From a phage: 64,000 bases of DNA. This document shows, one piece after another, positions 14,925 through 49,813 of this stretch. The notes under the pieces were generated by a model that worked only from the letters and a program-made list of their open reading frames with translations, did no database searches and was not told the DNA's origin. The first letter of the stretch is position 1. Each line of letters opens with the position of its first letter. Location of the stretch: assembly GCA_024672315.1 (NCBI GenBank), contig GCA_024672315.1_4714.1; one strand, written 5' to 3'. The position numbers were made by a program, and so were the translations under genes.

Positions 14925-15005
14925 GTAAAAAGATCCTCTGTTTCACGTTAACTAAACAACGTGTTGATTTCTATTTGACAGAATACGAACATTGTACGTA
15001 TCTAT

Positions 15006-15028
15006 CACTTAGGTAACGCTTACGCGTC
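15006..15028 (-). promoter_or_regulatory. partial copy of conserved motif
   Basis: CACTTAGGTAACGCTTACGCGTC shares first 11 nt with the motif. Confidence 0.3.
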
Positions 15029-15031
15029 GCG

Positions 15032-15054
15032 TTCATGATGCATGGCATCATGAA
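15032..15054. promoter_or_regulatory. perfect palindrome, operator-like
   Basis: TTCATGATGC-ATG-GCATCATGAA between two promoter-motif copies. Confidence 0.4.
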
Positions 15055-15072
15055 GGTAATATAGTCGTGAAA
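15052..15072 (-). promoter_or_regulatory. conserved motif, candidate promoter for gene 14175-14924
   Basis: GAAGGTAATATAGTCGTGAAA, ~128 nt upstream of ATG 14924; abuts palindrome 15032-15054. Confidence 0.45.
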
Positions 15073-15758
15073 GGATTTGTGTTACAGCAAGGGTTTTGTT
15101 GTTTTTAAGAAGGGATGGATTTAGAAGAGGTGTTGCAAGCAAGGAAGGTAAACGAGGATAGGTATTTTGATTTAAGTAAGTAAGATGTTATCTGTATTCG
15201 TTAAAAGTGTATTGTCTATCTTAAGTTATGTCTTATTGTTTAATCGTTTAATATTTTTATCTAAATAGGTTTAACTCTATCTTGTTTGTATATTTAAATT
15301 AAATCAATAAGCTTATCTTCAAAACAATGGATAACATGTGTTTACTACCTTAACGGTAACACATGTCATCTGTGCATTACACTTCGTTACATGCTAATTA
15401 AATCGGATAACTCAAAAAACATTTGTGATACTCTTCTTCACGTTGTTCATCAGAGTATCCCGTCTATACTCATTGCATTCGTATACGACATAACCGTTAT
15501 ACGCTAACGCTACGCTTATAGCTTGATAACTCTAAGGATAAAAACATAAACTCGCTTCGCTCGTTTAGTTTTTCTTTTTCTTAGAGTTATCCTGTTGCTC
15601 GTCTCTAAAGGACTTCGCTCCTCCCCCGTCCCCCGAAGGGGCCGAGGTCGTGGAAATTTTACTTTCCAAATACATTTACAACATCTGTAAACTTTTACTC
15701 CAGGTACTTAATCTTATCATTAGAAATTATAAAAGAGAAGAATAAACACAAACATAAA

Positions 15759-15791
15759 CCTTCCTCCAACCCAACAGGGAAGGAGGAAGGG
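15759..15791 (-). terminator. CCTCC-family hairpin H3 after gene 15807-16700
   Basis: CCTTCCTCC-AA-CCC-AACA-GGG-AA-GGAGGAAGG; identical to H9. Confidence 0.65.
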
Positions 15792-15806
15792 AGAGATTAA
15801 TTAAAA

Positions 15807-16700
15807 TTAATCAGCGACGTTATAACCGAATACGACTTTACCGTAGGTGTGAGTACCGTCAGCTAATGACAGCACCAGCACGTGGTTGTACGTAGCGTTA
15901 ACGCCCTTGTCGGTAGACTGGGCGGTAGCACCGTTATAGACAAAGGTAGCCGTTTGCAGATTGGTTTTCAGCTCATTGATGATATCATCACTTACACCGG
16001 TCTGCTCTTTGATCAGCGTAGTCAGGTTACCTGCTAAGCCTGCATCGATATTTACTTCGTTGCCGGTAATAGCTTGTAAACCTGCGGTGTAAGTACTGAA
16101 GTCTAACGGATAGGTTAACAGACGTGCTGAGGTCTTGGTACCATCGCCTTCATCAACGTAGGTTAAGTTACCTAGATTGGTAACCTTGATGATGTTAGCC
16201 AGATCCAGCGTGGTGTTATAAACTTTAACTTGAACAGAGCCGTACCACGCCAACGAATCTTCTTTGGCTTCCAGGGTGATCGTCTGGATACCATGCTGGT
16301 CGAAGGTAACCGGCGTAGCTAACGTTTCGGCTTTGATGTCTTTCGTTTTATCCAGGAACTTGTCACCGGAAGGCGTGATCATACCGTAGCGTTGAGCTAC
16401 GAGGTCGACCACATCACCGATGGTGGTGTTAGCAGTAACGTTAACACGTACGGCGATCTTCTGGAACCACTTAGCCAGATCCAGACGATGGTAGGTAACA
16501 TCGCGGTCATTGAAGTAAGGGGTACCATCACCAGGGCTAAGCGTTAAAGTTGCTTCTGGAGCAGAATCACTTTTGGATTTAAGAACGTATTTAAGATCAG
16601 AGTATTGGAATTCGGCACCAGTGTCGGCGTTGAGTTTGTTAATCTCATCAACGATAAGTTGCCAAGGTGTTTTTAAAGTAAGCGAAACTTGAGTTGCCAT
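15807..16700 (-). CDS. abundant virion-type protein, member of ~300-aa paralog family
   Basis: 297 aa; strongly biased enterobacterial codon usage; shares YxR[IL], R[YF]G[ILM] and LAW[YT]GSV blocks with 16842, 27766, 29588 and 30450; hairpin H3 follows 16 nt after stop. Confidence 0.65.
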   Translation of the reverse strand: MATQVSLTLKTPWQLIVDEINKLNADTGAEFQYSDLKYVLKSKSDSAPEATLTLSPGDGTPYFNDRDVTYHRLDLAKWFQKIAVRVNVTANTTIGDVVDLVAQRYGMITPSGDKFLDKTKDIKAETLATPVTFDQHGIQTITLEAKEDSLAWYGSVQVKVYNTTLDLANIIKVTNLGNLTYVDEGDGTKTSARLLTYPLDFSTYTAGLQAITGNEVNIDAGLAGNLTTLIKEQTGVSDDIINELKTNLQTATFVYNGATAQSTDKGVNATYNHVLVLSLADGTHTYGKVVFGYNVAD

Positions 16701-16841
16701 TTTCTACCTCTATGGTTGTTACATCACTCTCAAAAGATGTAAGTGTTTACAGAAATTAATATATTTTATATTAGTGTGAATAATATGGAGAACGACTCCG
16801 AATCTCCTTTTCGACCATCAAAAATCAGAGGACACATTATC

Positions 16842-17384
16842 ATGGCCTTAGACTTTAACAAAGCAGCGAAATCCCTTCTGCTTGATCTTATCAACACCAA
16901 AGCGACCCGCACGCTGACCGAAGAAGAACTGCAGTTCGGTACTCCGCAGGCATCTTCCGAACATCCTAAGAACACCGTTATTCAGCTGGACGCTGCGCCT
17001 GAAGCAGCTAACCTGCAGGGTAGTAAGCAGTTCTACTACGATCGTCTGGCTCTGTCCGACGTTTTCGCTGATGTAACTAGCGATGTTACTTTCGAACTGC
17101 CGCACGGTACCGACAGCATCCAGGCTTCTGAACTGGTAAGCAAGCTGGTCACCAAATTCGGCCTGGCTTCCCTGACCGGTGAAATCAAAGAAGAAACCTT
17201 CCAGCTGTCTGCAGGTACTGTTGCTCAGGTAACTCTGAACGCGATCGAGAATGGCATGGTATATACCGGCACCCTGCAGGTTGCACTGACCTACGCAGCT
17301 GCACCGAAAGATGACCTGGCAACCGTTCTGGCGAATAACGTAGCTGAAGGCTTCGAGAAACCGACCGTTAGCGTTGTTGGCTAA
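16842..17384 (+). CDS. short member of ~300-aa paralog family
   Basis: Start moved to ATG 16842 (AGAGGA RBS, onset of strong codon bias); motifs FYYDRLALSDVF, KFGLASLTGEI, MVYTGTLQV. Confidence 0.6.
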   Translation: MALDFNKAAKSLLLDLINTKATRTLTEEELQFGTPQASSEHPKNTVIQLDAAPEAANLQGSKQFYYDRLALSDVFADVTSDVTFELPHGTDSIQASELVSKLVTKFGLASLTGEIKEETFQLSAGTVAQVTLNAIENGMVYTGTLQVALTYAAAPKDDLATVLANNVAEGFEKPTVSVVG

Positions 17385-17583
17385 TAAGCACATAGAGCAA
17401 TAGTATGGGTTTTGTACAGCTCGGCTATTGCTCTTCTACAATTTGGTTGTAATAATCTGCGTGGTTGCACGCTTATCTTTCTCATTGAGCGCTTCGTATG
17501 AAGCGTGGTGTTGAAAGGGTTGTGGATCTCCTCAAGCGGCCAGGGACCCAGACCAACCTGAATAAACACGAACACCTGTTAAG

Positions 17584-17615
17584 CCCCTCCTCATCCGTTA
17601 TTGGGTGAGGAGGGG
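17584..17615. terminator. CCTCC-like hairpin between convergent genes 16842-17384 and endolysin
   Basis: CCCCTCCTCA / TGAGGAGGGG 10-bp stem followed by T-rich tract on plus strand. Confidence 0.5.
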
Positions 17616-17678
17616 TCTTATACGTCTTTATGCGTTCCGTTCGTTCTGGAGCGTTTTAGGACGGTTTACGGCAGGGTT

Positions 17679-18314
17679 TTATTCAACACTGAAACCGTTC
17701 AAACGAATAGCTTCATAACGCTTACGTTCACGACGTTTACGTGCCTGCCAGCCGTAAATGAACTTCTCGTCTTTCTCACGACGTTCAGCTAATTCGATGT
17801 AGTAGGTGCTCTGCATATCCAACATCGCGTCGATGAGATAATCTTTACCGGTTTCTCCGCGTTTAGCGATGTAAGCGTCGAGTACGCCTAACGTCGCAGG
17901 TCCCATCAAACCGTCGGCGTTGATATCTTTCCAGTAAGTTTGACGATTGTTCATGACGTTAAGGTAACGCTGGAGGTTCTTAACCGCAACCGTTTTACCT
18001 GCATTGATACCCAGGTCAAAGAGACGGTCAGCTAAGAACACAGAACGTTTCATGACTTCGTCAAGCTTCATCTTATCCCAGAAATGAGTCTTGTAGATAA
18101 AGAACGCCATTTCCGTGGTAAGGTTACGCATGTTACCGTTCCAGCCGAATTTCGTTTTCAGCGTGGTTTTGTATTGTTCCGCCAAAGCTTGCGTCACGCC
18201 GTGGTTTGTGATTCCGCCCGAATCATCGGGATCGTCGACGTAACCTGCTTCGATGCTTGTTTTGTCACGAATGATGAATTCGCAGGTAAAATCTTTTTCT
18301 GTAATCTTAGCCAT
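17679..18314 (-). CDS. endolysin, GH108-type lysozyme with peptidoglycan-binding domain
   Basis: N-terminal EAGYVDDPDDSGGITNHGVTQ matches GH108 catalytic signature; AGGAG RBS. Confidence 0.75.
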   Translation of the reverse strand: MAKITEKDFTCEFIIRDKTSIEAGYVDDPDDSGGITNHGVTQALAEQYKTTLKTKFGWNGNMRNLTTEMAFFIYKTHFWDKMKLDEVMKRSVFLADRLFDLGINAGKTVAVKNLQRYLNVMNNRQTYWKDINADGLMGPATLGVLDAYIAKRGETGKDYLIDAMLDMQSTYYIELAERREKDEKFIYGWQARKRRERKRYEAIRLNGFSVE

Positions 18315-18357
18315 TAGAACTCCTCGTTGGAATAACGATTTAGAGGAACAGGAAGGG

Positions 18358-18431
18358 TCTAGAACGCGATAAACGATTTAATCCAGGCAAACCCCAGGTT
18401 AAACTTTTCGGAGCGTTACAACGCGTTCTAG
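18358..18431. promoter_or_regulatory. inverted repeats upstream of endolysin gene
   Basis: TCTAGAACGCG at 18358 and 14-bp perfect palindrome GCGTTCTAGAACGC at 18418-18431. Confidence 0.35.
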
Positions 18432-18440
18432 AACGCTGAA

Positions 18441-20489
18441 TTAAATACCCTTGGTTCCTTTCACGTGATGTGCAATTTCTTCAACCATTGCACGCAGAGC
18501 ACGAAGCTGTTGGTCATGTTCGTACCAACCGCCTAACAGAACCCCGCTATACACCATGGTGTCAAGACTTAACAGCCCTTTATCTGATACGTTGATCATT
18601 TCAGGGAACTGTTCTTGAACACGCTGTGCGATAACACCGATCTTCTCGACATCAGGATCGTAGTTGTGACGGAAACGGGCAAGCCCACTGCGTGCCATTT
18701 CACGTAAACGTTCACTAAGAGATTCTGGATGGTCTTTCAGATAACGGATGTCGTGTTTACTGCGCTCATCTGAACGGATGTAAGCGTTAGGAACATCGAT
18801 GTTGCTGTTGAAGTACAGCGCACTACCACCACCTGCAGAGTTCCCCCAATAGAAGCGCGTGATCTCACCGCCACCATTTTCCGTGATGATAACATGTTTA
18901 CCTAAACGTGTACCACCATTACCATCAACGAAGACCAGTTTGTTTCCGCTGTAAGAACCCCAGAACAAGCGTGTATCGATGATGTGCGTTGCGGCGAGAC
19001 GGGCGTTACGCGGTGTAGAATACACGGTGTTAACATCTTGCTGCGCATGCGCATCGGAAGCGATACCGTAGTTCTGAACGTTCCCCAACCCTACCTGCGC
19101 TTTCGTAACAGCGTGAGGGTTGTCTCGACGGTTAGCGTGAGCGTTAACCAGATCACCCGCTAATTTCTGAATTGCCCAGTTAGTAGACTGTGGTGTCATG
19201 TAACGGTTAGTCGAGGAACCACCTTGCGCTTCAGCTTGGTTAGCGGTTGGGTAGTTCTCAACACTTCCTAACCCTACTTGTGCTTTAGACACTTGGTGTG
19301 GGTTATTCTTGTCAGCGATGTGTGCATTAAGCGGAACTAACGCAAAGGTCTCAATGGACGCTTTGGTTGTGTTCGGTGCCATTAATCGGTTAGCTGCAAC
19401 ACCGGCGCGCGCTTCTTCTTCAGAAGCCATCGGATAGTTTTGCACATTACCTAATCCCACCTGGGCTTTAGTTACCTTGTGTGGGTTGTTGTAATCGGTT
19501 TTGTGTGCATTAAGCGGAATCAGTGCGAACTGTTCAATCGCTGCAACAGTGCGTAGCGGCGTCATGAAACGGTTGTTCGCTGTTCCGGCTTTCGCCTCAC
19601 CATCCGAAGCGGTCGGGAAGTTATCAACGTTCCCAAGGTTAACCTGTGCTTTGGTGACGCTATGCGGGTTATCCCGACGGTTAGCGTGTGCGTCGACGAG
19701 ATCGCCCGCCAGTTTAGCAATTGCCCATCCAACCGTTTGTGCGGTCATGTATCGGTCAGGTGCAGTACCGGCTTCTGCCTCCGCCTTGTTTGCGGTAGGA
19801 TAGTTCTGTACGTTACCGAGTCCGACTTGGGCTTTTGTTACTTCGTGCGGGTTATCGGTACGGTTAGCATGCGCGTAATGCAGATCGGTTAGATCTTTAT
19901 CCGCTGCTTGCATGTCTTTGCGTAGCTGATCGATTGCCGCCCAGAGACGGTTATCGGATGCAGCATCACCGATAAGTATTGCGGCTTTCAGTGAATAGAT
20001 CGCTAAGCAAAGATGTTCGGTACCGTAAATAGCACTAACGTGGTGGATGTGTGGTTCAGGCGGATAAAGTTCCGGTTTGTTCTTGATGTCGTCCCAGTTG
20101 ATCGGACGATCGTCAAGTTTGAGTTCTTCGATAGCCTGATATAACGCGTCAATAAGACTTACGTAAACACCACCGATGATACGATAGTCGTTAACTAACG
20201 TCCCCTCGATATCATCGTTGATGATGGCGATCGCCGCACAGATTTCTTTACCTGCGTAAAGCGTTGCGTCCTGATACAAGAAGATGGGTTTATAATCCAC
20301 GCCTCGCACCAGTGTCTTACCGGTAAGCTTTTCAGTGATGACCAGACTTTCGGTGAAGAACGGTCCGCCATCAAGGGCGTAACATTTATTCTCGGTTCGT
20401 GGAACGGTATGCTCTTCACCAACGATGTGGTTGCTGGCGAGTGTACCGGTCCAGTCCTCGGGGTACTTCAGGGTAATTGGTGTCGACAT
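18441..20489 (-). CDS. tail fibre with NPH repeats and C-terminal S74 intramolecular chaperone domain
   Basis: Five ~55-aa repeats (NPHxVTKAQVGLGNVxNY...YMTP); C-terminal RSDERSK Ser/Lys motif and GWYEHDQQLRAL typical of self-cleaving chaperone domains. Confidence 0.75.
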   Translation of the reverse strand: MSTPITLKYPEDWTGTLASNHIVGEEHTVPRTENKCYALDGGPFFTESLVITEKLTGKTLVRGVDYKPIFLYQDATLYAGKEICAAIAIINDDIEGTLVNDYRIIGGVYVSLIDALYQAIEELKLDDRPINWDDIKNKPELYPPEPHIHHVSAIYGTEHLCLAIYSLKAAILIGDAASDNRLWAAIDQLRKDMQAADKDLTDLHYAHANRTDNPHEVTKAQVGLGNVQNYPTANKAEAEAGTAPDRYMTAQTVGWAIAKLAGDLVDAHANRRDNPHSVTKAQVNLGNVDNFPTASDGEAKAGTANNRFMTPLRTVAAIEQFALIPLNAHKTDYNNPHKVTKAQVGLGNVQNYPMASEEEARAGVAANRLMAPNTTKASIETFALVPLNAHIADKNNPHQVSKAQVGLGSVENYPTANQAEAQGGSSTNRYMTPQSTNWAIQKLAGDLVNAHANRRDNPHAVTKAQVGLGNVQNYGIASDAHAQQDVNTVYSTPRNARLAATHIIDTRLFWGSYSGNKLVFVDGNGGTRLGKHVIITENGGGEITRFYWGNSAGGGSALYFNSNIDVPNAYIRSDERSKHDIRYLKDHPESLSERLREMARSGLARFRHNYDPDVEKIGVIAQRVQEQFPEMINVSDKGLLSLDTMVYSGVLLGGWYEHDQQLRALRAMVEEIAHHVKGTKGI
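19020..19920 (-). repeat. tandem coding repeats (five NPH units) in tail fibre gene
   Basis: Repeated DNA cores encoding NPHxVTKAQVGLGNV. Confidence 0.7.
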
Positions 20490-20502
20490 AACCTGGAGGT
20501 CC

Positions 20503-23106
20503 TTATAACGTGACTGTACCTAATTTGGTTGTCTTATTGAGATTAATGACAGAGATCTGGGTATCGCTGGTCGTAATCGTTCCGATATTAACGCGCTGTC
20601 CTTTATCATCTTCTTGCTTGTAGATGGTTAACTCCAGTTCTAACTGGTCGCCATTAGGAACAACGGAAACGTACCATGTTTTATTACCCGGTGAGCTATT
20701 ATAGTCTTTTAGGTTATAATGGCCTTTAGGTAAGGTCATGACCTTACCGGCAAACAAGCAAGTGATGTCTTCGTTGATGTAGATATCGTAACCGGAAGCA
20801 GCAACGACCGTAGAAACCATGTAACGGTTTTTAACAGCGAGAGCTTTATATTCCGCAACGGAATTACCGACAGCGCTAAAGACTTGACCGCCATTACCCA
20901 TCACCGTAGAGACTGCGGTATCAACATAACCGATTCCCCACACCGGATGCACGTTCCAGCGCCAGCCGCTTGTCTGTAGGTAAGCATACATACCTTCAAA
21001 TGCGATGGTTGTCCAGTTCCCATCGTTTTGTCGTCCAGCTCGGAACTGATAGGTGTTCTGGTTCCCTGCAGACTGACGGGAGTACGGAACATGTCCCGCA
21101 ACAAGCCATCCATCACTCGCCTTCTTGTAAGCTAATACACCCCAGGCAGCATCCTGACTACCGATATTTGTTGAATCGGGTTCTTCGACATAACCCAGCA
21201 ATTTGGTTACGCCCGTCACCGTAATAGCGCCTTTACGCGCGGATACGGTAACCTCTGCAGCGATTCGTCCATGTACGCGTGTGCTGGTATTACAGCCAGC
21301 AACAAACAGGATACAGGGTGCGTTTGTACCATCTGGAGGCACTGCTAACGCATGTCGCCACTGACTTACCCCTGATAACTTAGATCCTGTATATGCGTTC
21401 CACACAAGCTGACCGCCTGCCTGCAGATTCGCTGCGGTTATGCTGATGGCTTCACCGGATGGTGCAAGTTTGGTTGCATCGTAACCGATTTTGCTTGTTA
21501 GGACCGCATCGGTTAAATAAGACCCGCTAACCACCGTATTATCGTCGCTTAAATGCACGGTTAGGAAAGGTAGTGACATTTGACCCGTTCTAACCACCAC
21601 GTTGTTGGAAGGCGGAAAACCGTAAACATTAATACCCTCGCCCTGATAATGGTAATTGAGGTTCCAGTCATAGGTCACTAGACGAGCCTCAAAATTACCC
21701 TGTCCGCCAGCCGTACGCGAGTTAACAAAAACCTTGTTCTTAGAAAAGAAACCCAGGTAACCATGGGACGCGAGTGCACCAACGACGCGATCCCCGACGC
21801 TTTTCCAGTTTGAATCGTACTGTCTTCCACCGGTCGGGCCGAGTTTGGCGAGTTCGTCGAACACGTTTCCAGAGAAACCATTGATGGTGTACGATCTCGC
21901 TTGGGGGGCGGATAAGTTGTCGTTTTGGATAAGGGCTACCTGACCACGTTCGTTGATTTCGATATTCCCGGTACCGTTACCCGAACCCCATTGCCAGAAA
22001 CCATCGTTATATGCACTTGTCCCCTCCGTTGTGTTGGAAGGTCCTATCCAGTCAATACCGCTGCTGGTTGACGTGTAAGTCGATTGTCCAGCGCCTGGGT
22101 TCATGCTGTAACTGTTGTTGGCGGTTTCAAAATCCAGATAAAACTGATGCAGCCCGTTTTTAGATCGGTTGTTACGGTTGTTCGTCCACCACGCCGAAGC
22201 AATCAGAATGCGTGCTTTAGTGCCTTTGGTTGCTGCAAGCAGACGAATCTGGGCACGCCAGACGATTTGACCGATCCCGTCAGAAGGGAAATCGTTCGCA
22301 GTTATGCGGTTGCAGACAATCATCTCGGCGCTGTTGCTTATTGCCATCCCTTCTATCGTTCTACCGCTAATATTCGTAAGCTGTGTAGCCGCTACGCTGC
22401 CACCGCTGGGACCGATGGAAGATTTAGTTACGGTATAAACATTTAAGTAGAGTTTATAACTGTTAGTGCCAGCAATAGCGATGTAGATTTTACCGTTAAT
22501 TTCCCAACAGCAGACATTCGGTGACGTATCAACAAAGTTGGCAAGACTACCATCGAGATACATGGCGACGTGTTTGGATGCATCAAACGTTCCGTCTGTC
22601 AATGCGATAAACATTTTAGGGCTGCTACCGTCTTCAAAAGCAGCTTGACCTAACATGATACCGTTCTGGTGACAGTATATCGCCGTAGGAATACGGTCGA
22701 GCGTCGCGGGTTCATAACGACGACTGGTTGGGATAACTTCGGTGATTTGCCCGTTTTGATCTGTTTTACAGATAACGTAGTAAACCCCTTTCTTTACGCT
22801 GTTCGTTGCTGAACGCAATAACACGATAGTACCGTCGGATTCACGACATACGCCGTAACGACGGTATCTGTCGTTTAGGGAGATAGCACCATCAGCGGAG
22901 CCTTCAATTGCCAGAGGAAAATAACTTTGGTCCCCAACCTGTTCGATATCGGTTACGCCAATATCGATGTATTTTTCCATCTCAGTGTCGAACTCAGCGG
23001 TACTGTAGGCACCGAGATCGCTCGCCTTTAGTCCCGTTGGGTTGTCACGACTGGCGATACGCGTAGTAACGCTACTCACCAGTTCGCTGAACTTTTTCAT
23101 TGCCAT
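20503..23106 (-). CDS. tail fibre / receptor-binding protein
   Basis: 867 aa; N-terminus FSELVSSVTTRIASRDNP shares module with neighbouring fibre genes; Gly/Ser/Thr/Asn-rich body; GAGGTG RBS. Confidence 0.6.
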   Translation of the reverse strand: MAMKKFSELVSSVTTRIASRDNPTGLKASDLGAYSTAEFDTEMEKYIDIGVTDIEQVGDQSYFPLAIEGSADGAISLNDRYRRYGVCRESDGTIVLLRSATNSVKKGVYYVICKTDQNGQITEVIPTSRRYEPATLDRIPTAIYCHQNGIMLGQAAFEDGSSPKMFIALTDGTFDASKHVAMYLDGSLANFVDTSPNVCCWEINGKIYIAIAGTNSYKLYLNVYTVTKSSIGPSGGSVAATQLTNISGRTIEGMAISNSAEMIVCNRITANDFPSDGIGQIVWRAQIRLLAATKGTKARILIASAWWTNNRNNRSKNGLHQFYLDFETANNSYSMNPGAGQSTYTSTSSGIDWIGPSNTTEGTSAYNDGFWQWGSGNGTGNIEINERGQVALIQNDNLSAPQARSYTINGFSGNVFDELAKLGPTGGRQYDSNWKSVGDRVVGALASHGYLGFFSKNKVFVNSRTAGGQGNFEARLVTYDWNLNYHYQGEGINVYGFPPSNNVVVRTGQMSLPFLTVHLSDDNTVVSGSYLTDAVLTSKIGYDATKLAPSGEAISITAANLQAGGQLVWNAYTGSKLSGVSQWRHALAVPPDGTNAPCILFVAGCNTSTRVHGRIAAEVTVSARKGAITVTGVTKLLGYVEEPDSTNIGSQDAAWGVLAYKKASDGWLVAGHVPYSRQSAGNQNTYQFRAGRQNDGNWTTIAFEGMYAYLQTSGWRWNVHPVWGIGYVDTAVSTVMGNGGQVFSAVGNSVAEYKALAVKNRYMVSTVVAASGYDIYINEDITCLFAGKVMTLPKGHYNLKDYNSSPGNKTWYVSVVPNGDQLELELTIYKQEDDKGQRVNIGTITTSDTQISVINLNKTTKLGTVTL

Positions 23107-23118
23107 TATTCACCTCGA

Positions 23119-23604
23119 TTAAATAGGCGAGTCGGGTAGCTGACCATCATCGATCTCGATGGTGGCCACCTTACGTGTTGCAGCAAGATGTGATGTACCC
23201 TGGATTTTGTTCCAGGTGCCGATACGCATGGCGTTTTTGTAGCTGCTATCGCTATCGTTCAGTGTGTAAACAAAACCGCTATCGGTTACGGCAAGATAGA
23301 TCCAGCCTACAGACTCACTGATACCTGACACGTCCAAAGTTGCTGCTGGCACCGTCCCTACCACCGTGTTGTATTCCGCTGTACCTTGACCAATGCTGAT
23401 CCGTCCGTTGCTGTAACTGGCTGCCGGAAGCGTTTTATTTCGACTGAAGAAAAGAAACGGAAGGTAACGCTGGGTAACAAGCGGTGCAAGTTTAGAAGCC
23501 ACTTCGGTCTTAACGTAGACATCTGTTTGTGTTGGCGTTACCTCGTGAGGGTTCTTTTGGGTAAGATACGTCCCCCATTCAGAAAGCAGTGTTGATAGCT
23601 TCAT
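23119..23604 (-). CDS. small tail-fibre-family protein
   Basis: 161 aa; N-terminus LSEWGTYLTQKNPHEVTPTQ shares fibre module. Confidence 0.5.
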   Translation of the reverse strand: MKLSTLLSEWGTYLTQKNPHEVTPTQTDVYVKTEVASKLAPLVTQRYLPFLFFSRNKTLPAASYSNGRISIGQGTAEYNTVVGTVPAATLDVSGISESVGWIYLAVTDSGFVYTLNDSDSSYKNAMRIGTWNKIQGTSHLAATRKVATIEIDDGQLPDSPI

Positions 23605-23608
23605 GCGG

Positions 23609-24118
23609 TTACCCCATGTAACGTTTTTGGCCGAGGATGAAGACTTTGTTAAAGACCACCGAAGTGATTCCTGTTGCGTTACAGCTCACCTGCCCGACGC
23701 GAATTGCTGTTGACGTATCGACCCCAGCACTACTCTGCCAGATCCAATCGATCGATCCGTCTTTCTGACGAATGAAAAGATAACCGGTTTTGTTCGCCCA
23801 GTCGGAAGTAAGTTTTTTGATGTCTAGCGTTCCCTTCGCCAGAATATAGTCGGTACCGGCGATCATGACGGGTATTTCAGGATACGAGATTACCGTACCG
23901 CTGGCGGTAACGTTGCTGATGCGATCACTACGAATATCAGTACAATCACCGAAATACGCTACGGGGAGTATCCCCTTAGGGAGCTTTTTGCCGATTCTCG
24001 TATCGATCGTGTTTTTATCGGGTGCACCGATTTGTGCTGCAGTGACTTGGTTAGGGTTATCCTTCCTTGCGTACCATGTCGTCATGCGAGCACCCAATTC
24101 ACTCATTTTTGTGCCCAT
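23609..24118 (-). CDS. small tail-fibre-family protein
   Basis: Track start 24124 is GTG; ATG at 24118; N-terminus MSELGARMTTWYARKDNPNQVTAAQIG shares fibre module. Confidence 0.5.
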   Translation of the reverse strand: MGTKMSELGARMTTWYARKDNPNQVTAAQIGAPDKNTIDTRIGKKLPKGILPVAYFGDCTDIRSDRISNVTASGTVISYPEIPVMIAGTDYILAKGTLDIKKLTSDWANKTGYLFIRQKDGSIDWIWQSSAGVDTSTAIRVGQVSCNATGITSVVFNKVFILGQKRYMG

Positions 24119-24152
24119 TTTCACATCCTATCGAAAAATAAAAAGAAGGAAA

Positions 24153-24169
24153 GGTGGGTAGAACCCACC
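24153..24169 (-). terminator. intrinsic terminator after tail fibre gene 24176-26329
   Basis: GGTGGGT / ACCCACC stem; plus-strand A-rich run 24128-24150 gives U-run on minus transcript. Confidence 0.65.
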
Positions 24170-24175
24170 CATCCG

Positions 24176-26329
24176 TTATAACGTTTCGAAGTCGGTTGCT
24201 TTGATAACCGCGTTGAAGTTAGCAAGGAATTCCTTAAGCAGTGCTTGGAAGACATCACGAAACGCTGTGTTCGTCTGCAAGCTGGTTAAATAATCGTTCT
24301 TAAGGTAATCGCTCAGCTTACCGATCTTCTGCATCTTCTCGCCGTCTTGGTTCTCTCCAGGTTCTTGGCTGTTGATGTTAACCCATTTGATCCCTTCGAG
24401 ATCGCCATCGGCAAGGAAGTTGGCGGGTGTCTCATCGTCGTTCAGGATTTTAATCGTATCACTGGATTCAATACCACCGTAAGCTTCCAGAAGCTGGTTG
24501 ACTGTTAGCTTATTGGTGTTGATTGAACCATTGACACCATCGATACCGATGCCTGCACCTGTGATGGATGTCGCCGAAAGATCGATCGGTCCGGTTAACT
24601 TACCACCGTTGATCGGTAACGCACCAACTTGCTCAGCGGTGTGTGTATGGTCAGCTAACGCCGCAAACGCCACGATAGACTTATATGTCGAATACGGCGT
24701 CATATACGCTGATTGGTTGGTGTTGTCAGCCGCTTCAGTATCGGTAGCAACATTAAAGTTCTGCACGTTGCTGAGACCGACCTGTGCCTTCGTTACTTCG
24801 TGCGGGTTGTTCTTATTGACAACGTGTGCGGCAAAACCGTCACCAGCTAAAGCAGTGATTGCAGCTTTTGTCGCAGCCGGTGTCATATAGCGGTTGGTTG
24901 CTTCACCCGTTTGCGCCTCTTCGTCGGAAGCAACAGGATAGTTCTCAACGCTCCCCAAACCGACCTGAGATTTTGTTACTTGGTGTGGGTTTTCGGTATT
25001 CGCGATGTGACTACTGAACCCTTGACCAGCCAGCTGCTCGATTGCGTAACGAACAAGTATTGGTGTCATGTACTTGTTGTTAACTTGACCATCGATCGCT
25101 TCTTGGGTGGTGGCAACCCCGAAGTTTTGCACGCTCCCCAACCCAACTTGCGCTTTCGTAACAGCGTGAGGGTTATTGGTGTTACCGATGTGATCGGTAA
25201 CCGTTGGGGTGATTAATGCTGCGATAGCGGCTGCCGTGGTCGCAGGGGTCATGTATTTATCGTTAGCAACACCTGCACCAGCTTCTACGTTAGATGCTAC
25301 ACCGTAGTTCAATACATTCCCTAACCCAACTTGAGCTTTGGTTACCCCATGGGGGTTGGTCTTGTCTCCGGTATGGGTTGTCAACGTAGCGTTGACATGA
25401 TCGATACGCGTGCTTAAGCCGTCGGTGATTGCTTTGATTGCGGCTCGTACACCCGCTGGTGTTGTGTACAGATTTGTGGCCGTACCGGTAATAGTTGTAT
25501 TACTATCGGCTGTACCGTAGTTCTCAACGTTTCCGAGCCCCACCTGGGCTTTCGTTACCTTGTGTGGGTTGTTGTAGTTGCTGATGTGTGCAGCAGCACT
25601 ATCACCACTCAGGTTAGCGATCATCTTACGCGTCATCGCCAACGTCATGTACAGATTTTCACCGATGGTTTCCAGATCGCTCTCGGTCGCCGTTGTGAAG
25701 TTCTGAACATTCCCCAAACCAACTTGTGCCTTGGTTACACCATGGGGGTTATCGCGACGATTCTCGTGCTGTAGCAATGCGGTCATTGCTTTATTGAACC
25801 CTTCTTCAAGCGGTTCTTTCAATGATTCGATTGCAGCCACCACATCGTCCCACGTCATTGTGTCGGTTTCGACATTATGCTGATGGTTGATTGGCGGGAA
25901 TACGGAAGGAACGTCGGCAACCTTTTCCCAGAACGTAACGCGGGGGTCGTAGAGGTTGTTGGCTAAAACGTTAAGAATTTGTTGTTGATCAAGTGTAAAC
26001 TCACCCCCCAGTGAATAGTAGTTCAGTTGCAACTGTCCACTGAATGCGGTGTCCAACAGCATGATGGAACCGTATAATTCCAGGCCGGTCAGCGCAGCCA
26101 TGGCACGGAAGGGGTGAGTGCATAAAAAGTCAACGCCTTCTTCCAGATACGCGTTTGTTTCAGGGTTGTAGATCTTTAACCCATTACGAAAATAGGGTGC
26201 GTATTTAGGAACGAGAAAGTTAAATCCGGTCCCCGTGGAAGGACGGACAGTGACGAGTTCTTCTGGAACCCATGCGCCATCCAAATTCCCCTGCGGGTTA
26301 TACGGAAGGCGTTTAATTTCATCTGTCAT
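24176..26329 (-). CDS. tail fibre with six NPH repeats
   Basis: 717 aa; six repeats of NPHxVTKAQVGLGNVxNx...YMTP; followed by terminator 24153-24169. Confidence 0.75.
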   Translation of the reverse strand: MTDEIKRLPYNPQGNLDGAWVPEELVTVRPSTGTGFNFLVPKYAPYFRNGLKIYNPETNAYLEEGVDFLCTHPFRAMAALTGLELYGSIMLLDTAFSGQLQLNYYSLGGEFTLDQQQILNVLANNLYDPRVTFWEKVADVPSVFPPINHQHNVETDTMTWDDVVAAIESLKEPLEEGFNKAMTALLQHENRRDNPHGVTKAQVGLGNVQNFTTATESDLETIGENLYMTLAMTRKMIANLSGDSAAAHISNYNNPHKVTKAQVGLGNVENYGTADSNTTITGTATNLYTTPAGVRAAIKAITDGLSTRIDHVNATLTTHTGDKTNPHGVTKAQVGLGNVLNYGVASNVEAGAGVANDKYMTPATTAAAIAALITPTVTDHIGNTNNPHAVTKAQVGLGSVQNFGVATTQEAIDGQVNNKYMTPILVRYAIEQLAGQGFSSHIANTENPHQVTKSQVGLGSVENYPVASDEEAQTGEATNRYMTPAATKAAITALAGDGFAAHVVNKNNPHEVTKAQVGLSNVQNFNVATDTEAADNTNQSAYMTPYSTYKSIVAFAALADHTHTAEQVGALPINGGKLTGPIDLSATSITGAGIGIDGVNGSINTNKLTVNQLLEAYGGIESSDTIKILNDDETPANFLADGDLEGIKWVNINSQEPGENQDGEKMQKIGKLSDYLKNDYLTSLQTNTAFRDVFQALLKEFLANFNAVIKATDFETL
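24700..25770 (-). repeat. tandem coding repeats (six NPH units) in tail fibre gene
   Basis: Same unit as 19020-19920; segments 25121-25171 and 25531-25580 nearly identical to 19071-19121 and 19451-19500. Confidence 0.7.
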
Positions 26330-26433
26330 GATGCGCCCTTTACAAGTTGTTAGTAAGTATGGGATACCCTGGGGTATCCTGTGTTAACAGCGGTAAAATA
26401 TTACTGTAACTATAAAATAAGGGGGCCTCTCCC

Positions 26434-27714
26434 ATGTATACATTGGTAAAAACTTACGGATTACCCGTAGGTTCTGGCACGGCCTGGACAGCGCTTGAGG
26501 CGGGTGAAAGTGTCCTGAGTACGTTGTTCTCAACGTATCAAAAACTCAAGATCCAGGTCCATGAAAGCTATGCTGACCAGCAACAAGTTATTGATCTGTA
26601 CACATTTCAATCCGAGCTTCAAAACAGCAGTGATACGCTCAATGCGTGGTTGAAAGCGAAATCGGATGCGCATACCAACCTTCGCGGACAGCCTGGTGAG
26701 CTGTCGATTAAAACCCACAAGCTTTATTGTCATGACGCTATTACGGTAGGCTTTCTCCCTAAAGTCGGTAATAGCGGTTATCATCCGAGCAACGCGATCC
26801 CTGAGTCGGAACGCACCGATATCCTGTTGACGAAAGCGAATACGAATTACGAAAATATCGGCAAACATTGTTTGTTCACCGTAGGTGGTTATGTCCATCC
26901 TCACGTTTACGGTAAAGACGTTGGTGTCTATATCCAAGGTGGGTTCAAGACAGCACAGCGTGGCCAAGAAAACGATATCGGCATGATTGATTTTAGCCGT
27001 ATTGGGAGTTTGGAAATCCATGCTATCACAGAAGAGATGATTGCTGATTCCACGAAGCTCTTGCCGTATAAGGACGAGATGTACTTGCGGTTACCGCGCA
27101 AGGTCGCCGAAGATGAAACCGTCGCGCTGGTGTTCGGGGGATATTTACATCTTCTTGACGATTGTTACACGATCGTTAGCGACACGACAGCGAAAATAAA
27201 CTGCATTAACATGTTTCTCTATGAACGATACTTCCGCTCCCGCAAATACCTCGATCTAACATCTCTTGGTATTCTGTTGAACGAAGAAGACCCACAGTCC
27301 GACATTGTTGCCAATCGTTTATTGTCAGATAAAGCATTAAAAGCGTGGGTGACACATCCTTGCAGTTTCTGGGTGTATATCAAAGCAACATCAATTCAGG
27401 TTACGCAAGAACCTTTACCACGAAGTGGTGTACCAGGACAATATTTCTTAGGTAAGAAACCGGAAGGATTGATTCGAGCCGATCTTGGTGAGTTACCGGC
27501 TTACGTACAGACCTATGAAAAACCGTTATGGGTACTTCACTCGCGCTGGGGACTTCGTAAGAACATGTTGTTTGAAAACACATTGTACAAACATACCCGC
27601 GTTAAGCGGCTTAACGATACGCCTTATCTTCACCAGGTCTGGTTGGAAACGCATGCGACGTTGCAGACAGTACACAAGCTCGAATTGATCGATTCCAGTC
27701 AGAAAAACAAATAA
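26434..27714 (+). CDS. hypothetical protein
   Basis: 426 aa; plus-strand gene between tail-fibre cluster and paralog cluster; ends at hairpin H4. Confidence 0.55.
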   Translation: MYTLVKTYGLPVGSGTAWTALEAGESVLSTLFSTYQKLKIQVHESYADQQQVIDLYTFQSELQNSSDTLNAWLKAKSDAHTNLRGQPGELSIKTHKLYCHDAITVGFLPKVGNSGYHPSNAIPESERTDILLTKANTNYENIGKHCLFTVGGYVHPHVYGKDVGVYIQGGFKTAQRGQENDIGMIDFSRIGSLEIHAITEEMIADSTKLLPYKDEMYLRLPRKVAEDETVALVFGGYLHLLDDCYTIVSDTTAKINCINMFLYERYFRSRKYLDLTSLGILLNEEDPQSDIVANRLLSDKALKAWVTHPCSFWVYIKATSIQVTQEPLPRSGVPGQYFLGKKPEGLIRADLGELPAYVQTYEKPLWVLHSRWGLRKNMLFENTLYKHTRVKRLNDTPYLHQVWLETHATLQTVHKLELIDSSQKNK

Positions 27715-27724
27715 CCAAACATAA

Positions 27725-27756
27725 CCCTCCTCCAACCCGTCAGGGAAGGAGGAGGG
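27725..27756. terminator. CCTCC-family hairpin H4 at convergent junction
   Basis: CCCTCCTCC-AA-CCC-GTCA-GGG-AA-GGAGGAGGG between stops at 27714 (+) and 27766 (-). Confidence 0.6.
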
Positions 27757-27765
27757 AATATGCTG

Positions 27766-28671
27766 TTATGCCACGTATAGCGTTAGATAACCATCGATGA
27801 GCGTATTCATCACACTGAGTTGAAGTACGACAGCTTTACTAACATCCGTACGTACACCGAACGGTAGTGTTTTGAATTGCTCTGGATCGGCTATTACTTG
27901 CGCATTCTGCAAGTTGAGCGGCCCAGGCATTGCTGACAATACCCAGCGATCGTTGACCATAAGGCCGTCGATCTCTTCAGAGAGACCCAATTGCAGCATG
28001 TTCATTTCTGCGATTAGTGCCTCCGATTGCGTATCACCTGAGGTTAACGTATAACCATCGGTAAGTGACGCCAGAACACCAGCAGATACGAACCAGTTGT
28101 ACGAAACAATAGCGCCTGGGAGTTTACTGCTATCTCGATCGATGATATAATTCAACCCAGCCAACATATTGTTGCGAACGAGGTTGTTGAGGTCATTATG
28201 TCCTGAAGTTAACTCGACAAGTAACTGACCAACCCATACTTGGTTACCGGGTTTAGGTGTTATCACAACCTGTATCGGTGACTTGGACTTATCCAGATCC
28301 GTGTCGACAATCTCGGTTTTGTTGAGAAGGATACCGTACGTCGATGCTAAGACAGGTAGGATCTCAGAGACCTTGGTTAGCGCATCTAAGGTTTCGATCT
28401 CGACGGGCCAGTGGTGCTGTCCGCCAGGCCAAGTACCCAGTTTACCAAGATCGATGCGGTTATAATAGATGTCGACAGAGTTCACCAGCCCTGAACCCGG
28501 CTGGGGATGCACGGTTAACTTGCTGTTACGCTTGTACCCTGTGCTTTCAGAAGCCTCACCGATAACCAGTTTATCCAGCGTTACGCCTCGAGCATCGAAA
28601 TCGCTATGCTTTCGAATCAGCCGAAAGAGGATTTCTTTCGATTCTAACCCCAGGATTTCACTGTACTCCAT
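27766..28671 (-). CDS. member of ~300-aa paralog family
   Basis: 301 aa; YYNRIDLGKL, STYGILLN, VWVGQLLV blocks; AAGGGG RBS. Confidence 0.6.
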   Translation of the reverse strand: MEYSEILGLESKEILFRLIRKHSDFDARGVTLDKLVIGEASESTGYKRNSKLTVHPQPGSGLVNSVDIYYNRIDLGKLGTWPGGQHHWPVEIETLDALTKVSEILPVLASTYGILLNKTEIVDTDLDKSKSPIQVVITPKPGNQVWVGQLLVELTSGHNDLNNLVRNNMLAGLNYIIDRDSSKLPGAIVSYNWFVSAGVLASLTDGYTLTSGDTQSEALIAEMNMLQLGLSEEIDGLMVNDRWVLSAMPGPLNLQNAQVIADPEQFKTLPFGVRTDVSKAVVLQLSVMNTLIDGYLTLYVA

Positions 28672-28686
28672 TTAACACCCCTTAGG

Positions 28687-29571
28687 TTACGGTAGGATTT
28701 CTGCGCCCGTCGGGCCTGCCTTACGAGCTTCCAACGCACCAAGGTCGTATTTCAGTGTCAGCGTATCGTTGGTGGTAAATAGGTTGTGGTAAGTCGAAAT
28801 CAGATCGGTAACCTGCGCACCAACGATTTCGTTCATGTCGAAGGCCGAACCTTGACCATCATCAGCACGAACGATTTTATCGCCAGCAGAGACCATCCCA
28901 ATTTCAGAAATAACCGCGTACTCTTCACCACCTTCGGTGAGTTTAGCCACATTGAGATATTCGTTAATATCCCATGGCGTCCAAACCAAAGAGACTTTAC
29001 AGCTATAATCGTAGTACTCCCCGGTCGCTACCAGAATTCCGGTTGTTGGAATATCCGGTCGGGTGGGGTTGAGGTTCGCGTCGGTTGGATGCCATTCGAT
29101 GGTCTGAGCGACGCCGTCGACGTATTTGGTATAACGCATGGAGCGGACAACGTTATCGAAATCGATGCGACGACCGTAATAACAGATATACTTTTTACCG
29201 CTTTCCAGTGTCTCAATACGACGTAACCCAAATTTAGCGCGTTCGTCCGTGGTCAAGTCGTTACCAACCTCACGCATCACGAAAGGCTTGATTTTCCACG
29301 GTGAAAGATCGCTTGCTTCGTGAGCGATCGGCATCGAGGAAGGGATACCGTTAGCGTTGCGGATGAATTCATGACCCTGGTTGCCGATACAGAAGTAACG
29401 TACAGCAGGATTACCCTCGGGGTAAACCTTTGATTGAATCTGAAGCTTTTCATTCAAGGTGCTGTGTTCTTCCCATGCATGAGGAAGACCGAGCGTAAGG
29501 TTAGTTTGTACTTGACCGCCGATAATCGTACGGACGATACGATCGGTAGCACGGATTTGTGTAGAAGCCAT
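28687..29571 (-). CDS. hypothetical virion-type protein
   Basis: 294 aa, AGGAAA RBS; embedded in paralog cluster but lacks family motifs. Confidence 0.55.
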   Translation of the reverse strand: MASTQIRATDRIVRTIIGGQVQTNLTLGLPHAWEEHSTLNEKLQIQSKVYPEGNPAVRYFCIGNQGHEFIRNANGIPSSMPIAHEASDLSPWKIKPFVMREVGNDLTTDERAKFGLRRIETLESGKKYICYYGRRIDFDNVVRSMRYTKYVDGVAQTIEWHPTDANLNPTRPDIPTTGILVATGEYYDYSCKVSLVWTPWDINEYLNVAKLTEGGEEYAVISEIGMVSAGDKIVRADDGQGSAFDMNEIVGAQVTDLISTYHNLFTTNDTLTLKYDLGALEARKAGPTGAEILP

Positions 29572-29587
29572 GTCTTTTCCTATTTAA

Positions 29588-30439
29588 TCAGTTATATTGC
29601 ATCAACAGGATACCGCCGTAGTTCGTGCAGTAATCTTGGCTAAGCGTAACGATAACAGCGTTAGCGAACGCAGGGTTAACCGGATAACCCTGTGCGATAA
29701 GTTCTGTTGTTTTACCGGTTGCAAGCACAGTGGCTCCGTAAAGGTTGTTTTCGTCTTCACGGCCGTTATAAACCCACGGGATTGGCGCAACGTTGTTGAA
29801 TAAGCTAACCAGTGCGCTTAAGTTACCGCCAACTTTTAACCCAGCAAGATCGGAACGGATAGCCGTACAGTCTATAGCGTAACTGTAGACCAATGCCTGG
29901 ATACGATTTGCGGTGTAGTACGGGAAATTGAGACCGGTCATCACCGAAGTCTTCATCATCCCCGCAATATCGTGGGCACTATCGAGGAGATAGAACGTAA
30001 CACTTCCCGTCCAAGCCAATCCGGTTGTTTTCAATTCTACGGTGTGAGGGAACGGATATTCATCCCCTCGTACAATCGGAGAATCGACGCAGCTATCCTG
30101 ATCGATAACGATTCCGTACGTTGATTGAATCAGAGGGATAAGATCGTGCGTCGTTTTAACCCCAGCATCGATAGCAAGCTTCGGTTCCATTCCCAAGAAG
30201 AAGTCTTGGATAGGGATACGATCGTACCACACGTAGCTGCTTTCACGGTATTGTGCTGGCGTTACTGTTGCCGAAGGCGATACCTTAGCGCGTGTGTTCC
30301 GTTTATACGCATGGTTTCCGTTTTCAGCAGCATCCGTGATATCAATTGCATCGAAGTTAAAGTCGAAGTCAGGATTGGCCGCCTGAATAAGTTCAGCGAC
30401 CAGTACTTTAGGACTTTTGTTTAACAATTTCTGACTCAT
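29588..30439 (-). CDS. member of ~300-aa paralog family
   Basis: 283 aa; VWYDRIPIQDFF, STYGIVID, LAWTGSV blocks; AAGGAA RBS. Confidence 0.6.
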   Translation of the reverse strand: MSQKLLNKSPKVLVAELIQAANPDFDFNFDAIDITDAAENGNHAYKRNTRAKVSPSATVTPAQYRESSYVWYDRIPIQDFFLGMEPKLAIDAGVKTTHDLIPLIQSTYGIVIDQDSCVDSPIVRGDEYPFPHTVELKTTGLAWTGSVTFYLLDSAHDIAGMMKTSVMTGLNFPYYTANRIQALVYSYAIDCTAIRSDLAGLKVGGNLSALVSLFNNVAPIPWVYNGREDENNLYGATVLATGKTTELIAQGYPVNPAFANAVIVTLSQDYCTNYGGILLMQYN

Positions 30440-30449
30440 TGTTTATTCC

Positions 30450-31385
30450 TTAGCCTTGTTCTTCTGGAGAACGACCCTGGAGGCTTGCGGTATGTCCGTC
30501 GACATTGTAATAGAAAATCAATGGACCGCCAACGGCAGTACAGTAGTTTTCATCCAGACTGATCTCGATACCGTATTGGTAACCTGCTCTTGCTGGAATA
30601 CGTCCGCCTAACTCACCGTTGAAAGCCACTTTAGCATTATACAGGTTATACGGTGCGGCGTTGTCGTCTAATACCCAACGATCGGTAGTCATTTCAGCCA
30701 GAAGATCGGCAACCACCACATCGCTAATAACGGTACCTGTTACCAGCGAAGCCAGTAGTTCACCGTAATCAGAAGTATCACGACTGTAACTGTAAATCTC
30801 GCCGCTAGCGCGTACGCCTTGACCGAAGAACTTAAGGCCGTCCAGCTCCTTGATCGCGATAATATCATCAAGATTCGGTACACGCGACTTCATCAAGATA
30901 CGAACGCTCCCCGTCCAAGCCAGGCAGTTAGATGCGACACGAAGCAATTGTCCGTTAACGGTATCCCAGTTAAGTTCGTCGTTGACGATTTCTTCCGCGG
31001 TAAGGCCAAGACCGAAACGTTCTTTGATGATAGGCCAGATTTCACGCATCTTGGTGGCGTCTGGCGCATCGATAAGAATAGGCGCTACGTTACGCAGATA
31101 CGCACCGATGTTAATACGATCGTAATACAGCGTCGTCGAACCTTCATAATCGTCTAACTCGGTAAGCTTAGCGGTTGCTGTCGCCGTAATCTGGGTGTCG
31201 CGCTCGTAGGCGCTTTGGTTAGTGGTTGGTGTTCCTAAAACCAATAATTCAGGGGTTAGAACATGCTCTCCGTTCTGAGGTGGGTTATCGTGGTTGATAA
31301 GACCATACACGAGATCGGATGAGGGTAAAGAGACGTCGACCGGGTAAAGTTCGGTGTCGTCAATAGTTGTTACCGTATCACTCAC
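30450..31385 (-). CDS. member of ~300-aa paralog family
   Basis: 311 aa; GTG start with strong GAGGAGG RBS; LYYDRINIGAYL, ERFGLGLT, LAWTGSV blocks. Confidence 0.6.
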   Translation of the reverse strand: MSDTVTTIDDTELYPVDVSLPSSDLVYGLINHDNPPQNGEHVLTPELLVLGTPTTNQSAYERDTQITATATAKLTELDDYEGSTTLYYDRINIGAYLRNVAPILIDAPDATKMREIWPIIKERFGLGLTAEEIVNDELNWDTVNGQLLRVASNCLAWTGSVRILMKSRVPNLDDIIAIKELDGLKFFGQGVRASGEIYSYSRDTSDYGELLASLVTGTVISDVVVADLLAEMTTDRWVLDDNAAPYNLYNAKVAFNGELGGRIPARAGYQYGIEISLDENYCTAVGGPLIFYYNVDGHTASLQGRSPEEQG

Positions 31386-45642: not shown

Positions 45643-45791
45643 TGAAAGTATCCTTTACAGAATTAACTTATATAAGTCGGTCGATAGACCATAGCGTACA
45701 CGCGTGCATGCGCCACTATAGTATCAGTAAACACTTACCGTTATTGAGGTCGTGATACAACACTAAAAATGCCGCATAACTTTTCCCTACG

Positions 45792-49740: not shown

Positions 49741-49775
49741 TAAACTGGAGTAACGAGAAATAAGACAGCATAGAA

Positions 49776-49808
49776 CCCTCTCCCTTCCCTGATGGGTTGG
49801 GAGAGGGA
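49776..49808 (-). terminator. CCTCC-family hairpin H8 (inverted orientation) after gene 49814-50446
   Basis: CCCTCTCCC-TT-CCC-TGAT-GGG-TT-GGGAGAGGG; promoter motif 36 nt downstream on minus strand. Confidence 0.6.
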
Positions 49809-49813
49809 ATATA

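Follow-up and report, generated by a model that had tools for sequence, protein, structure and literature searches.

The 64,000-nucleotide stretch of phage DNA examined here (contig GCA_024672315.1_4714.1 of GenBank assembly GCA_024672315.1; hereafter the window) encodes five proteins, designated A to E in order of position, that are true paralogues within an already described family of chimallivirus (phiKZ-like jumbo-phage) virion proteins, DUF7941. Both the family identity of the five genes and their association with the virion are close to certain. The assignment is correct but not new: the family has a Pfam entry, two papers from 2016-17 and two from 2026 deal with it, and its function is only partly settled. 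With regard to mechanism, we lean toward a model in which exposed head-to-tail filaments are built mainly from A and B, with C, D and E as baseplate adaptors or anchors; we consider this model probable, though far from secure.

All five open reading frames (ORFs) listed in the initial annotation are present in the window (Table 1), and its proposal that they form a paralogous family is borne out. Each protein exceeded the curated cut-off of 27 bits for Pfam PF25613 (DUF7941), with scores of 170.9 (A), 77.0 (B), 189.8 (C), 160.6 (D) and 216.9 (E) bits and E-values of 5e-50, 2e-21, 9e-56, 7e-47 and 5e-64, respectively, and all five matched PHROGs 1037 and 2935 ("virion structural protein"). A, C, D and E were mutually significant in Smith-Waterman comparisons against shuffled sequences (z 15-29; 22-25% identity). 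B is related mainly via the profile and via E (z 12) and C (z 8); a direct comparison with its neighbour A shows weak similarity (z 3.2). The three motif blocks from which the family had first been proposed fall in register when the proteins are aligned, and the alignment statistics together with the Pfam matches rule out that these blocks are non-significant; residues Y70, R72, G106 and G154 are identical in all five. The same positions are conserved across the family (R72 in 99%, Y70 in 92%, G154 in 91% and G106 in 84% of 119 sequences, made up of the five window proteins and 114 representatives). At E<=1e-3 the family has 2,345 members among 1.84 billion cluster representatives, and a hidden Markov model (HMM) built from the five found no sixth member in the window. 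One could argue from the pairwise identity of just 21-25%, and from the A-B comparison alone, that the five are no true family and resemble one another through chance motifs or low complexity, but this idea, to which we give practically no weight, is refuted by the Pfam E-values of all five (2e-21 to 5e-64), the z-scores of 15-29 among the full-length members, the predicted fold in common with gp127 of phage phiKZ and the number of family representatives. None of the five matched PF12699 (inner-body/ejection proteins; the phiKZ gp93 family and SPN3US paralog family A) at E<=1; the PF12699 genes of the window, orthologous to Goslar gp53-gp58, form a separate block at ~55.7-64 kb.

The window is closely related to Escherichia phage vB_EcoM_Goslar, with which it shares 96% nucleotide identity over the 17 kb queried, and Goslar genes map collinearly across it; the guess that the DNA came from a jumbo phage was thus right. 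Goslar is a nucleus-forming jumbo phage of E. coli. The five genes are direct orthologues of Goslar gp22, gp23, gp31, gp33 and gp34, in the same order and orientation and with 89-98% amino acid identity (89.3% for A versus gp22; 98.3% for C versus gp31, with a ratio of nonsynonymous to synonymous substitution rates (dN/dS) of 0.075). The domain layout is also the same in Goslar, namely an N-domain, a linker and a C-domain, with gp23 lacking the C-domain. A size of about 300 residues had been given for the family; this fits A, C, D and E (283-311 residues) and does not fit B, which at 180 residues consists of the N-module and a short tail. A and B differ from their Goslar counterparts at ~11% of residues, concentrated in surface patches. 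A 2026 preprint counts ten DUF7941 proteins in Goslar (bioRxiv 10.64898/2026.04.21.720040).

The DUF7941 unit comprises an N-module of ~150 residues, a linker with the motif L..LxG[LF]x[YF]P and an optional C-module of ~100 residues. Linker residues L167, L176, G178, Y181 and P182 are conserved at 71-80% family-wide, and C, D and E can be aligned over their full length. The AlphaFold2 (AF2) model of A, with a predicted local distance difference test (pLDDT) score of 85, shows an N-terminal domain (residues 1-165), a low-confidence linker (~165-190) and a C-terminal domain (190-297), while that of B (pLDDT 89.7) shows the N-module and the tail. To judge from the sequences, the "DUF7941 domain" in fact consists of two modules, each shuffled without regard to the other: in the 150 top-scoring representatives we counted 103 with an N-C layout, 8 with N only, 10 N-N, 4 N-N-N and 9 N-C-C, and a further C-terminal extension was present in two of the four N-N-N and two of the nine N-C-C proteins. 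Family proteins are also found fused to Laminin_G_3, He_PIG, Ig_2, SPRY and Gly_rich_2 domains, additions of a type that is typical for surface adhesins.

The initial annotation could not place the family in a known fold, and as far as the fold is concerned that still stands, the only solved relative being phiKZ gp127, which was released in 2026. This protein was the sole significant fold match in the PDB for the model of A, and the model of B matched the N-domain of gp127 (PDB 9XQD chain 0; Foldseek 9xqd_0, E 4.6e-7, template modelling (TM) scores 0.62/0.72), whose fold is that of the N-module. A flagellin-like or type IV pilin-like fold with terminal helices was looked for in the five proteins and not found. 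The family does, however, have names: besides DUF7941 in Pfam, it entered the literature in 2016-17 as "paralog family B" of Salmonella phage SPN3US, with ~20 members (PMC5105663, PMC5694885).

A and B, a divergent pair with strong codon bias, had been singled out as highly expressed, and this is supported both by our codon counts and by proteomics of Goslar. Scored by the frequency of optimal E. coli codons (Fop), the capsid gene reaches 0.84, B 0.80 and A 0.65, and no other gene exceeds 0.64; in a codon adaptation index (CAI) that takes the capsid gene as its reference, B and A occupy the top two places among 53 genes, in that order, and C comes near the bottom. The resulting order of bias (B > A >> D, E > C) roughly parallels the copies per virion obtained for the Goslar orthologues by label-free mass spectrometry (MS), in which gp23 and gp22 rank with the most abundant proteins of the virion: gp23 ~2,144, gp22 ~577, gp33 ~112, gp34 ~27 and gp31 ~8.5 (bioRxiv 10.64898/2026.04.21.720040, Table S4). 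The pattern in SPN3US is the same, one member of ~32 kDa and one of ~18.5 kDa being present at very high copy and the others at low copy.

B also shares a promoter-like motif with the major capsid gene. The bipartite sequence GTAAGTGTTTAC-N33-TATGG lies in the A-B intergenic region (16739-16788, plus strand), ~55 nucleotides before the ATG of B, and again ~55 nucleotides before the ATG of the capsid gene (45689-45738, minus strand); it occurs exactly twice in the window, against 0 expected, and both boxes are kept in Goslar-like loci. The motif is likely, from sequence alone, to be a strong late promoter of Goslar-like phages, a candidate whose role we infer. A scan of the A/B region for sigma-70 promoters gave results no better than chance. 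A separate one-mismatch copy of GTAAGTGTTTAC was seen upstream of a tail-fibre gene (26446-26457). At the other end of the pair, the G+C-rich hairpin and T-run just past gene A (Table 1) is likely to be the intrinsic terminator of that gene; its stem is maintained by compensatory changes in loci L009, L014, L016 and L017.

The A/B pair evolves about ten times faster than the neighbouring structural genes. Relative to Goslar, the nonsynonymous rates (dN) of A and B are 0.061 and 0.055 and their dN/dS ratios 0.31 and 0.40, with ordinary synonymous rates (dS), as compared with dN of 0.001-0.014 and dN/dS mostly below 0.12 for C, D, E and other structural genes. This change is unevenly spread. Among 57 gp22 orthologues conservation peaks in the low-pLDDT linker, and three surface patches are hypervariable. 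The gp23 orthologues fall into two allelic classes, which agree with each other at 77% of the N-terminal 35 residues and 67% of the C-terminal tail but at only 18% of the centre. When one Goslar-like genome is compared with the window, neighbouring proteins are 91-97% identical, gp22 85% and gp23 48%. At a further locus (L015:1766-2878) a 370-residue DUF7941 protein takes the place of the 176-180-residue gp23-type gene beside a normal gp22-type gene, which suggests cassette-like replacement of a major subunit. Conserved termini and a hypervariable centre are also features of flagellin and pilins. Conserved ends and a variable middle, taken together with a very high copy number and with genes for minor subunits at other sites, are the signature of the major subunit of an exposed polymer.

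Genes C, D and E sit in a baseplate/portal module in which the spoke gene is followed by the wedge gene and then the portal gene (gp36; phiKZ gp129), with the gp130 homologue before C. The 294-residue gene between C and D had been described as an unrelated interruption; its position was given correctly, but it encodes the spoke protein (PF23838, E 1e-96; Goslar PDB entries 11lx/11pb/36za, E 2e-201; phiKZ PHIKZ139 in 9xpg/9xqd, E 5.5e-43), a structural neighbour of the phiKZ DUF7941 protein. Given this spoke/baseplate context and the conserved phiKZ block, we regard it as the structural partner of the family, not an intruder. In the 2026 phiKZ atlas the N-domain of gp127 is placed on the outer peripheral baseplate at the outer end of a band of gp139 dimers, a band that "terminates at gp127" (PDB 9XQD), and gp130 is an outer peripheral baseplate connector (PMC13250141). 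The block order gp126-gp127-gp128-gp129-gp130 is the same in phiKZ: gp126 and gp127 have the wedge (gp128) and portal (gp129) genes for neighbours, as E and D have gp35 and gp36, and E adjoins the wedge gene just as gp127 adjoins gp128. The phiKZ spoke gene, gp139, stands apart from gp126/gp127, unlike that of the window, which is located between C and D. phiKZ has three members (gp126, gp127 and gp143) with ~15-23% sequence identity to the window proteins; gp127 aligns with D at z 18, A and D score equally, and no one-to-one orthologue emerges among the window paralogues. B adjoins the endolysin gene, and the N-only phiKZ gp143 likewise adjoins the endolysin gene gp144. Elsewhere in this neighbourhood, two large minus-strand genes (18441-20489 and 24176-26329; gp25 and gp29 orthologues) encode tail-fibre-like proteins with many "NPH.VTKAQVGLGNV.N" repeats, and gp25 in related loci shows a weak match to the Peptidase_S74 chaperone domain.

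Table 1. Positions of the five DUF7941 genes and of associated features in the window (lengths in amino acids, aa).
Feature	Coordinates	Strand	Length	Identity and remarks
Gene A	15807-16700	-	297 aa	Goslar gp22 orthologue; N-module, conserved linker and C-module; high-copy member
Gene B	16842-17384	+	180 aa	Goslar gp23 orthologue; N-module and conserved C-terminal tail, without C-module; highest-copy member
Gene C	27766-28671	-	301 aa	Goslar gp31 orthologue; DUF7941 N+C; lowest-copy member
Gene D	29588-30439	-	283 aa	Goslar gp33 orthologue; DUF7941 N+C
Gene E	30450-31385	-	311 aa	Goslar gp34 orthologue; GTG start; DUF7941 N+C
Spoke gene	28687-29571	-	294 aa	Goslar gp32 orthologue (DUF7208), between C and D; baseplate spoke/band protein, phiKZ gp139 homologue
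Wedge gene	31445-33856	-		Goslar gp35 orthologue; baseplate wedge, phiKZ gp128 homologue (PDB 11lx_Bh, E 0; 9xqs_C PHIKZ128, E 1.4e-110)
gp130 homologue	26434-27714	+		Goslar gp30 orthologue; phiKZ gp130 homologue (PDB 9xqd_L PHIKZ130, E 3.7e-24)
Hairpin and T-run	15759-15790	-		G+C-rich; just past the stop codon of A; inverted repeat I7

The most likely scenario to bring these data together is that each protomer docks, through its conserved linker or tail, on the N-module of the next, so that head-to-tail chains form and appear as thin, flexible filaments on the particle exterior. B and A would be the major subunits, made in capsid-like amounts from their divergent, codon-biased gene pair, and C, D and E would most plausibly be low-copy, slowly evolving adaptors or anchors at the junction between filament and peripheral baseplate. 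The fast-evolving exposed middle, along with lectin-, Ig- and glycosidase-fused relatives encoded elsewhere in the genome, could make the first contact with the host surface. Polymerization is supported indirectly by the conserved linker and termini and by the natural N-N, N-N-N and N-C-C fusions (arrays joined covalently are to be expected where the modules otherwise chain by non-covalent contacts), and by the behaviour of the Goslar protein, while surface exposure is supported by the adhesin-type fusions and the fast evolution of A and B. For the Goslar orthologues both virion abundance and filament formation in vitro have been demonstrated: AlphaFold3 (AF3) predicted head-to-tail oligomers, purified gp22 formed filaments in negative stain, and the authors propose a "DUF7941 fibre cloud" with the peripheral baseplate as its anchor point (bioRxiv 10.64898/2026.04.21.720040). 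For the phage studied here, we infer the docking mode, the division of labour between major subunits and anchors, the attachment site and the role in host recognition.

Several points weigh against this model. We know of no experiment that has yet shown a role in adsorption, and free filaments carried along in the purification of virions could have raised the copy numbers obtained by label-free MS. The Goslar baseplate map showed no DUF7941 density (bioRxiv 10.64898/2026.04.21.720040), and phiKZ gp127 is an AF3 model docked in a map of ~4.4-4.7 Å, with the N-domain alone modelled (PMC13250141). Further points come from SPN3US, whose family B is listed as gp83, gp138-154, gp160 and gp237 and belongs to the same Pfam family as the window proteins (gp138-145, gp151 and gp160 match PF25613, as do phiKZ gp126 and gp127). 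A tailless SPN3US mutant (gp64 amber) retains nearly all family members and loses tube, sheath, fibre and presumed baseplate proteins (PMC5105663). Spectral counts changed from 420 in tailed to 326 in tailless particles for gp141, from 280 to 149 for gp160 and from 19 to 18 for gp83, with reference values of 1,723 to 1,691 for the capsid protein and 686 to 8 for the sheath; gp237 was the sole family member lost with the tail (PMC5105663 Table S4). From such tailless-mutant proteomics, and unlike in the baseplate model for Goslar, the SPN3US authors regarded the family as head proteins ("Head ejection?"; PMC5694885), work that the Goslar preprint does not discuss (bioRxiv 10.64898/2026.04.21.720040). 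Retention in tailless particles implies that the filaments also attach to heads, or that they self-assemble and co-purify, or that the abundant members are internal. From size and position only, we take SPN3US gp82 and gp84 to be probable homologues of the wedge and the spoke. Both vanish in the tailless mutant, and the 20-kDa family B member gp83 is encoded between them (PMC5105663 Table S4). The conflict over location between SPN3US and the baseplate model is real and keeps two rival explanations, taken up below as the second and third alternatives, alive.

An alternative that stays closer to the filament model is that the abundant subunits amount to a viral "flagellin", that is, an antigenically variable coat filament whose centre is swapped between allelic classes and which is not tied to the baseplate only. 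We consider this unlikely, if well worth keeping in view; the reason for not confining the filaments to the baseplate is that tailless SPN3US heads keep the family. The likeness to flagellin and the major pilins is one of functional analogy only, and consists in a self-polymerising high-copy subunit, conserved termini that serve as contacts, a hypervariable exposed centre and minor or adaptor subunits. If this idea were true, such filaments could decorate or entangle whole particles and would not form six baseplate-anchored fibres; they could also set host range or serotype, or mediate the clustering of virions in bouquets.

A second alternative is that A and B are head proteins, packed within the capsid or attached to it and perhaps ejected into the host like the PF12699 proteins, with a few low-copy members on the baseplate. 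The PHROG category of phrog_1037 and phrog_2935 is "head and packaging", and internal or ejected phage proteins which meet host defences evolve fast too. In SPN3US, moreover, purified tailless heads lack 28 tail proteins and still contain family B (PMC5105663, PMC5694885). We nevertheless find a head location rather improbable for the following reasons: (i) extensions of the lectin, Ig, SPRY and glycosidase type are sensible only outside the particle; (ii) processing by the prohead protease is reported for SPN3US gp53/gp54 and not for gp141/gp160 (PMC5694885); (iii) the sole member with a structurally assigned place, phiKZ gp127, is on the outer baseplate (PMC13250141); (iv) purified gp22 makes long filaments (bioRxiv 10.64898/2026.04.21.720040); (v) the capsid would need room for ~60 MDa of additional protein beside the DNA and the PF12699 proteins and (vi) "head" labels in this phage group are unreliable, as the phiKZ record calls both the wedge gp128 and the sheath gp145 a "structural head protein".

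It is also conceivable, though to our minds doubtful to much the same degree, that A and B build self-assembling intracellular filaments or bundles in non-stoichiometric amounts, for example a matrix by which virions are kept together in the "bouquets" of late infection, which co-purify with complete and tailless particles alike. Their retention in tailless SPN3US preparations would then be expected. Purified gp22 on its own gave filaments and bundles hundreds of nanometres long and the Goslar maps are without ordered density (both bioRxiv 10.64898/2026.04.21.720040), and Goslar bouquets are very large (PMC13282480). Set against this are the defined baseplate site of phiKZ gp127 (PMC13250141) and the case of phage RAY, which encodes at least 5 DUF7941 proteins (bioRxiv 10.64898/2026.04.21.720040) and forms no bouquets (PMC13282480). 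In addition, CsCl-purified virions of two unrelated phages contain similar high amounts of the ~32 and ~18.5 kDa classes. Exposed filaments with A and B as major subunits, anchored through C, D and E, continue to be the model that we prefer.

The number and arrangement of family genes differ among phages: SPN3US has its ~20 members mostly in one long tandem array, as compared with five in the window and ten genome-wide in Goslar. A tblastn search with E matched 125 phage records; those listed are all jumbo phages, with genomes of 197-307 kb and at most 8 places per genome. The family may reach beyond these phages, since DUF7941 is reported in secreted, membrane-anchored Spaid-like proteins of Spiroplasma (PMC13375240). 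SPN3US gp160 (L008:10940-11467) gave a sub-threshold match to the spiralin domain PF05215 (E 2.9e-4), and the gp23-type homologue P0259 matched the same domain weakly. The N-module may thus have relatives among Spiroplasma surface proteins, and the statement in the Goslar preprint that the module is exclusive to chimalliviruses may be too strong.

Gene A borders a gene-free gap of 882 nucleotides (14925-15806) that lies downstream of it and holds a block of ~410 nucleotides (~15290-15700, minus strand). The block is 98.8% identical to Goslar, compared with 91.5% for the adjoining gene A, and hardly varies among 7 Goslar-like lineages, although the proteins encoded on either side differ by 9-52%. 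It begins at a promoter-like box, GTAAAAGTTTAC, which is a two-mismatch copy of GTAAGTGTTTAC, and it folds far better than shuffled sequence (z ~ -6), containing a C(UUCG)G hairpin. Five of the six variable predicted pairs stay paired, two through compensatory double changes and three through G-U changes that work on the minus strand only. Within the gap, an Rfam search gave no meaningful match and iteron-like AGATAAS repeats were not enriched. The block may be a novel phage non-coding RNA (ncRNA) or a cis-acting DNA element.

Local mosaicism is seen around A and B (14175-14924, 11690-12052 and 17679-18314, all minus strand). The gp21 position is occupied by a largely unrelated ORF of 249 residues, just 113 nucleotides of which align to Goslar gp21 (80% identity), so that gp21 has in effect been replaced. 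The gp15 orthologue (86% identity, dS 0.5) suggests import by recombination, and the endolysin gp24 orthologue is 88% identical to Goslar at the nucleotide level, with indels. Farther away, ~650 nucleotides are inserted relative to Goslar at ~49772-50463, between the gp47 and gp48 orthologues, where an ORF (49814-50575, minus strand) could encode up to 253 residues. Neither this ORF nor the one replacing gp21 had a match in Pfam.

The five window genes can now be annotated with confidence, A and B as major DUF7941 virion filament subunits and C, D and E as minor members in the baseplate module. What retains interest is the unsettled location and function of the family and the conserved non-coding element beside A. 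In the particles of nucleus-forming jumbo phages, few components are more abundant than DUF7941 proteins, whose location and role are nonetheless disputed. To this debate our analysis adds the combination of conserved polymerization ends with a hypervariable centre, the fast evolution of the major subunits, the promoter-like motif shared with the capsid gene and the contradiction between the SPN3US data and the "fibre cloud", all of which bear on the host range of jumbo phages, both for understanding it and for engineering it for therapy.

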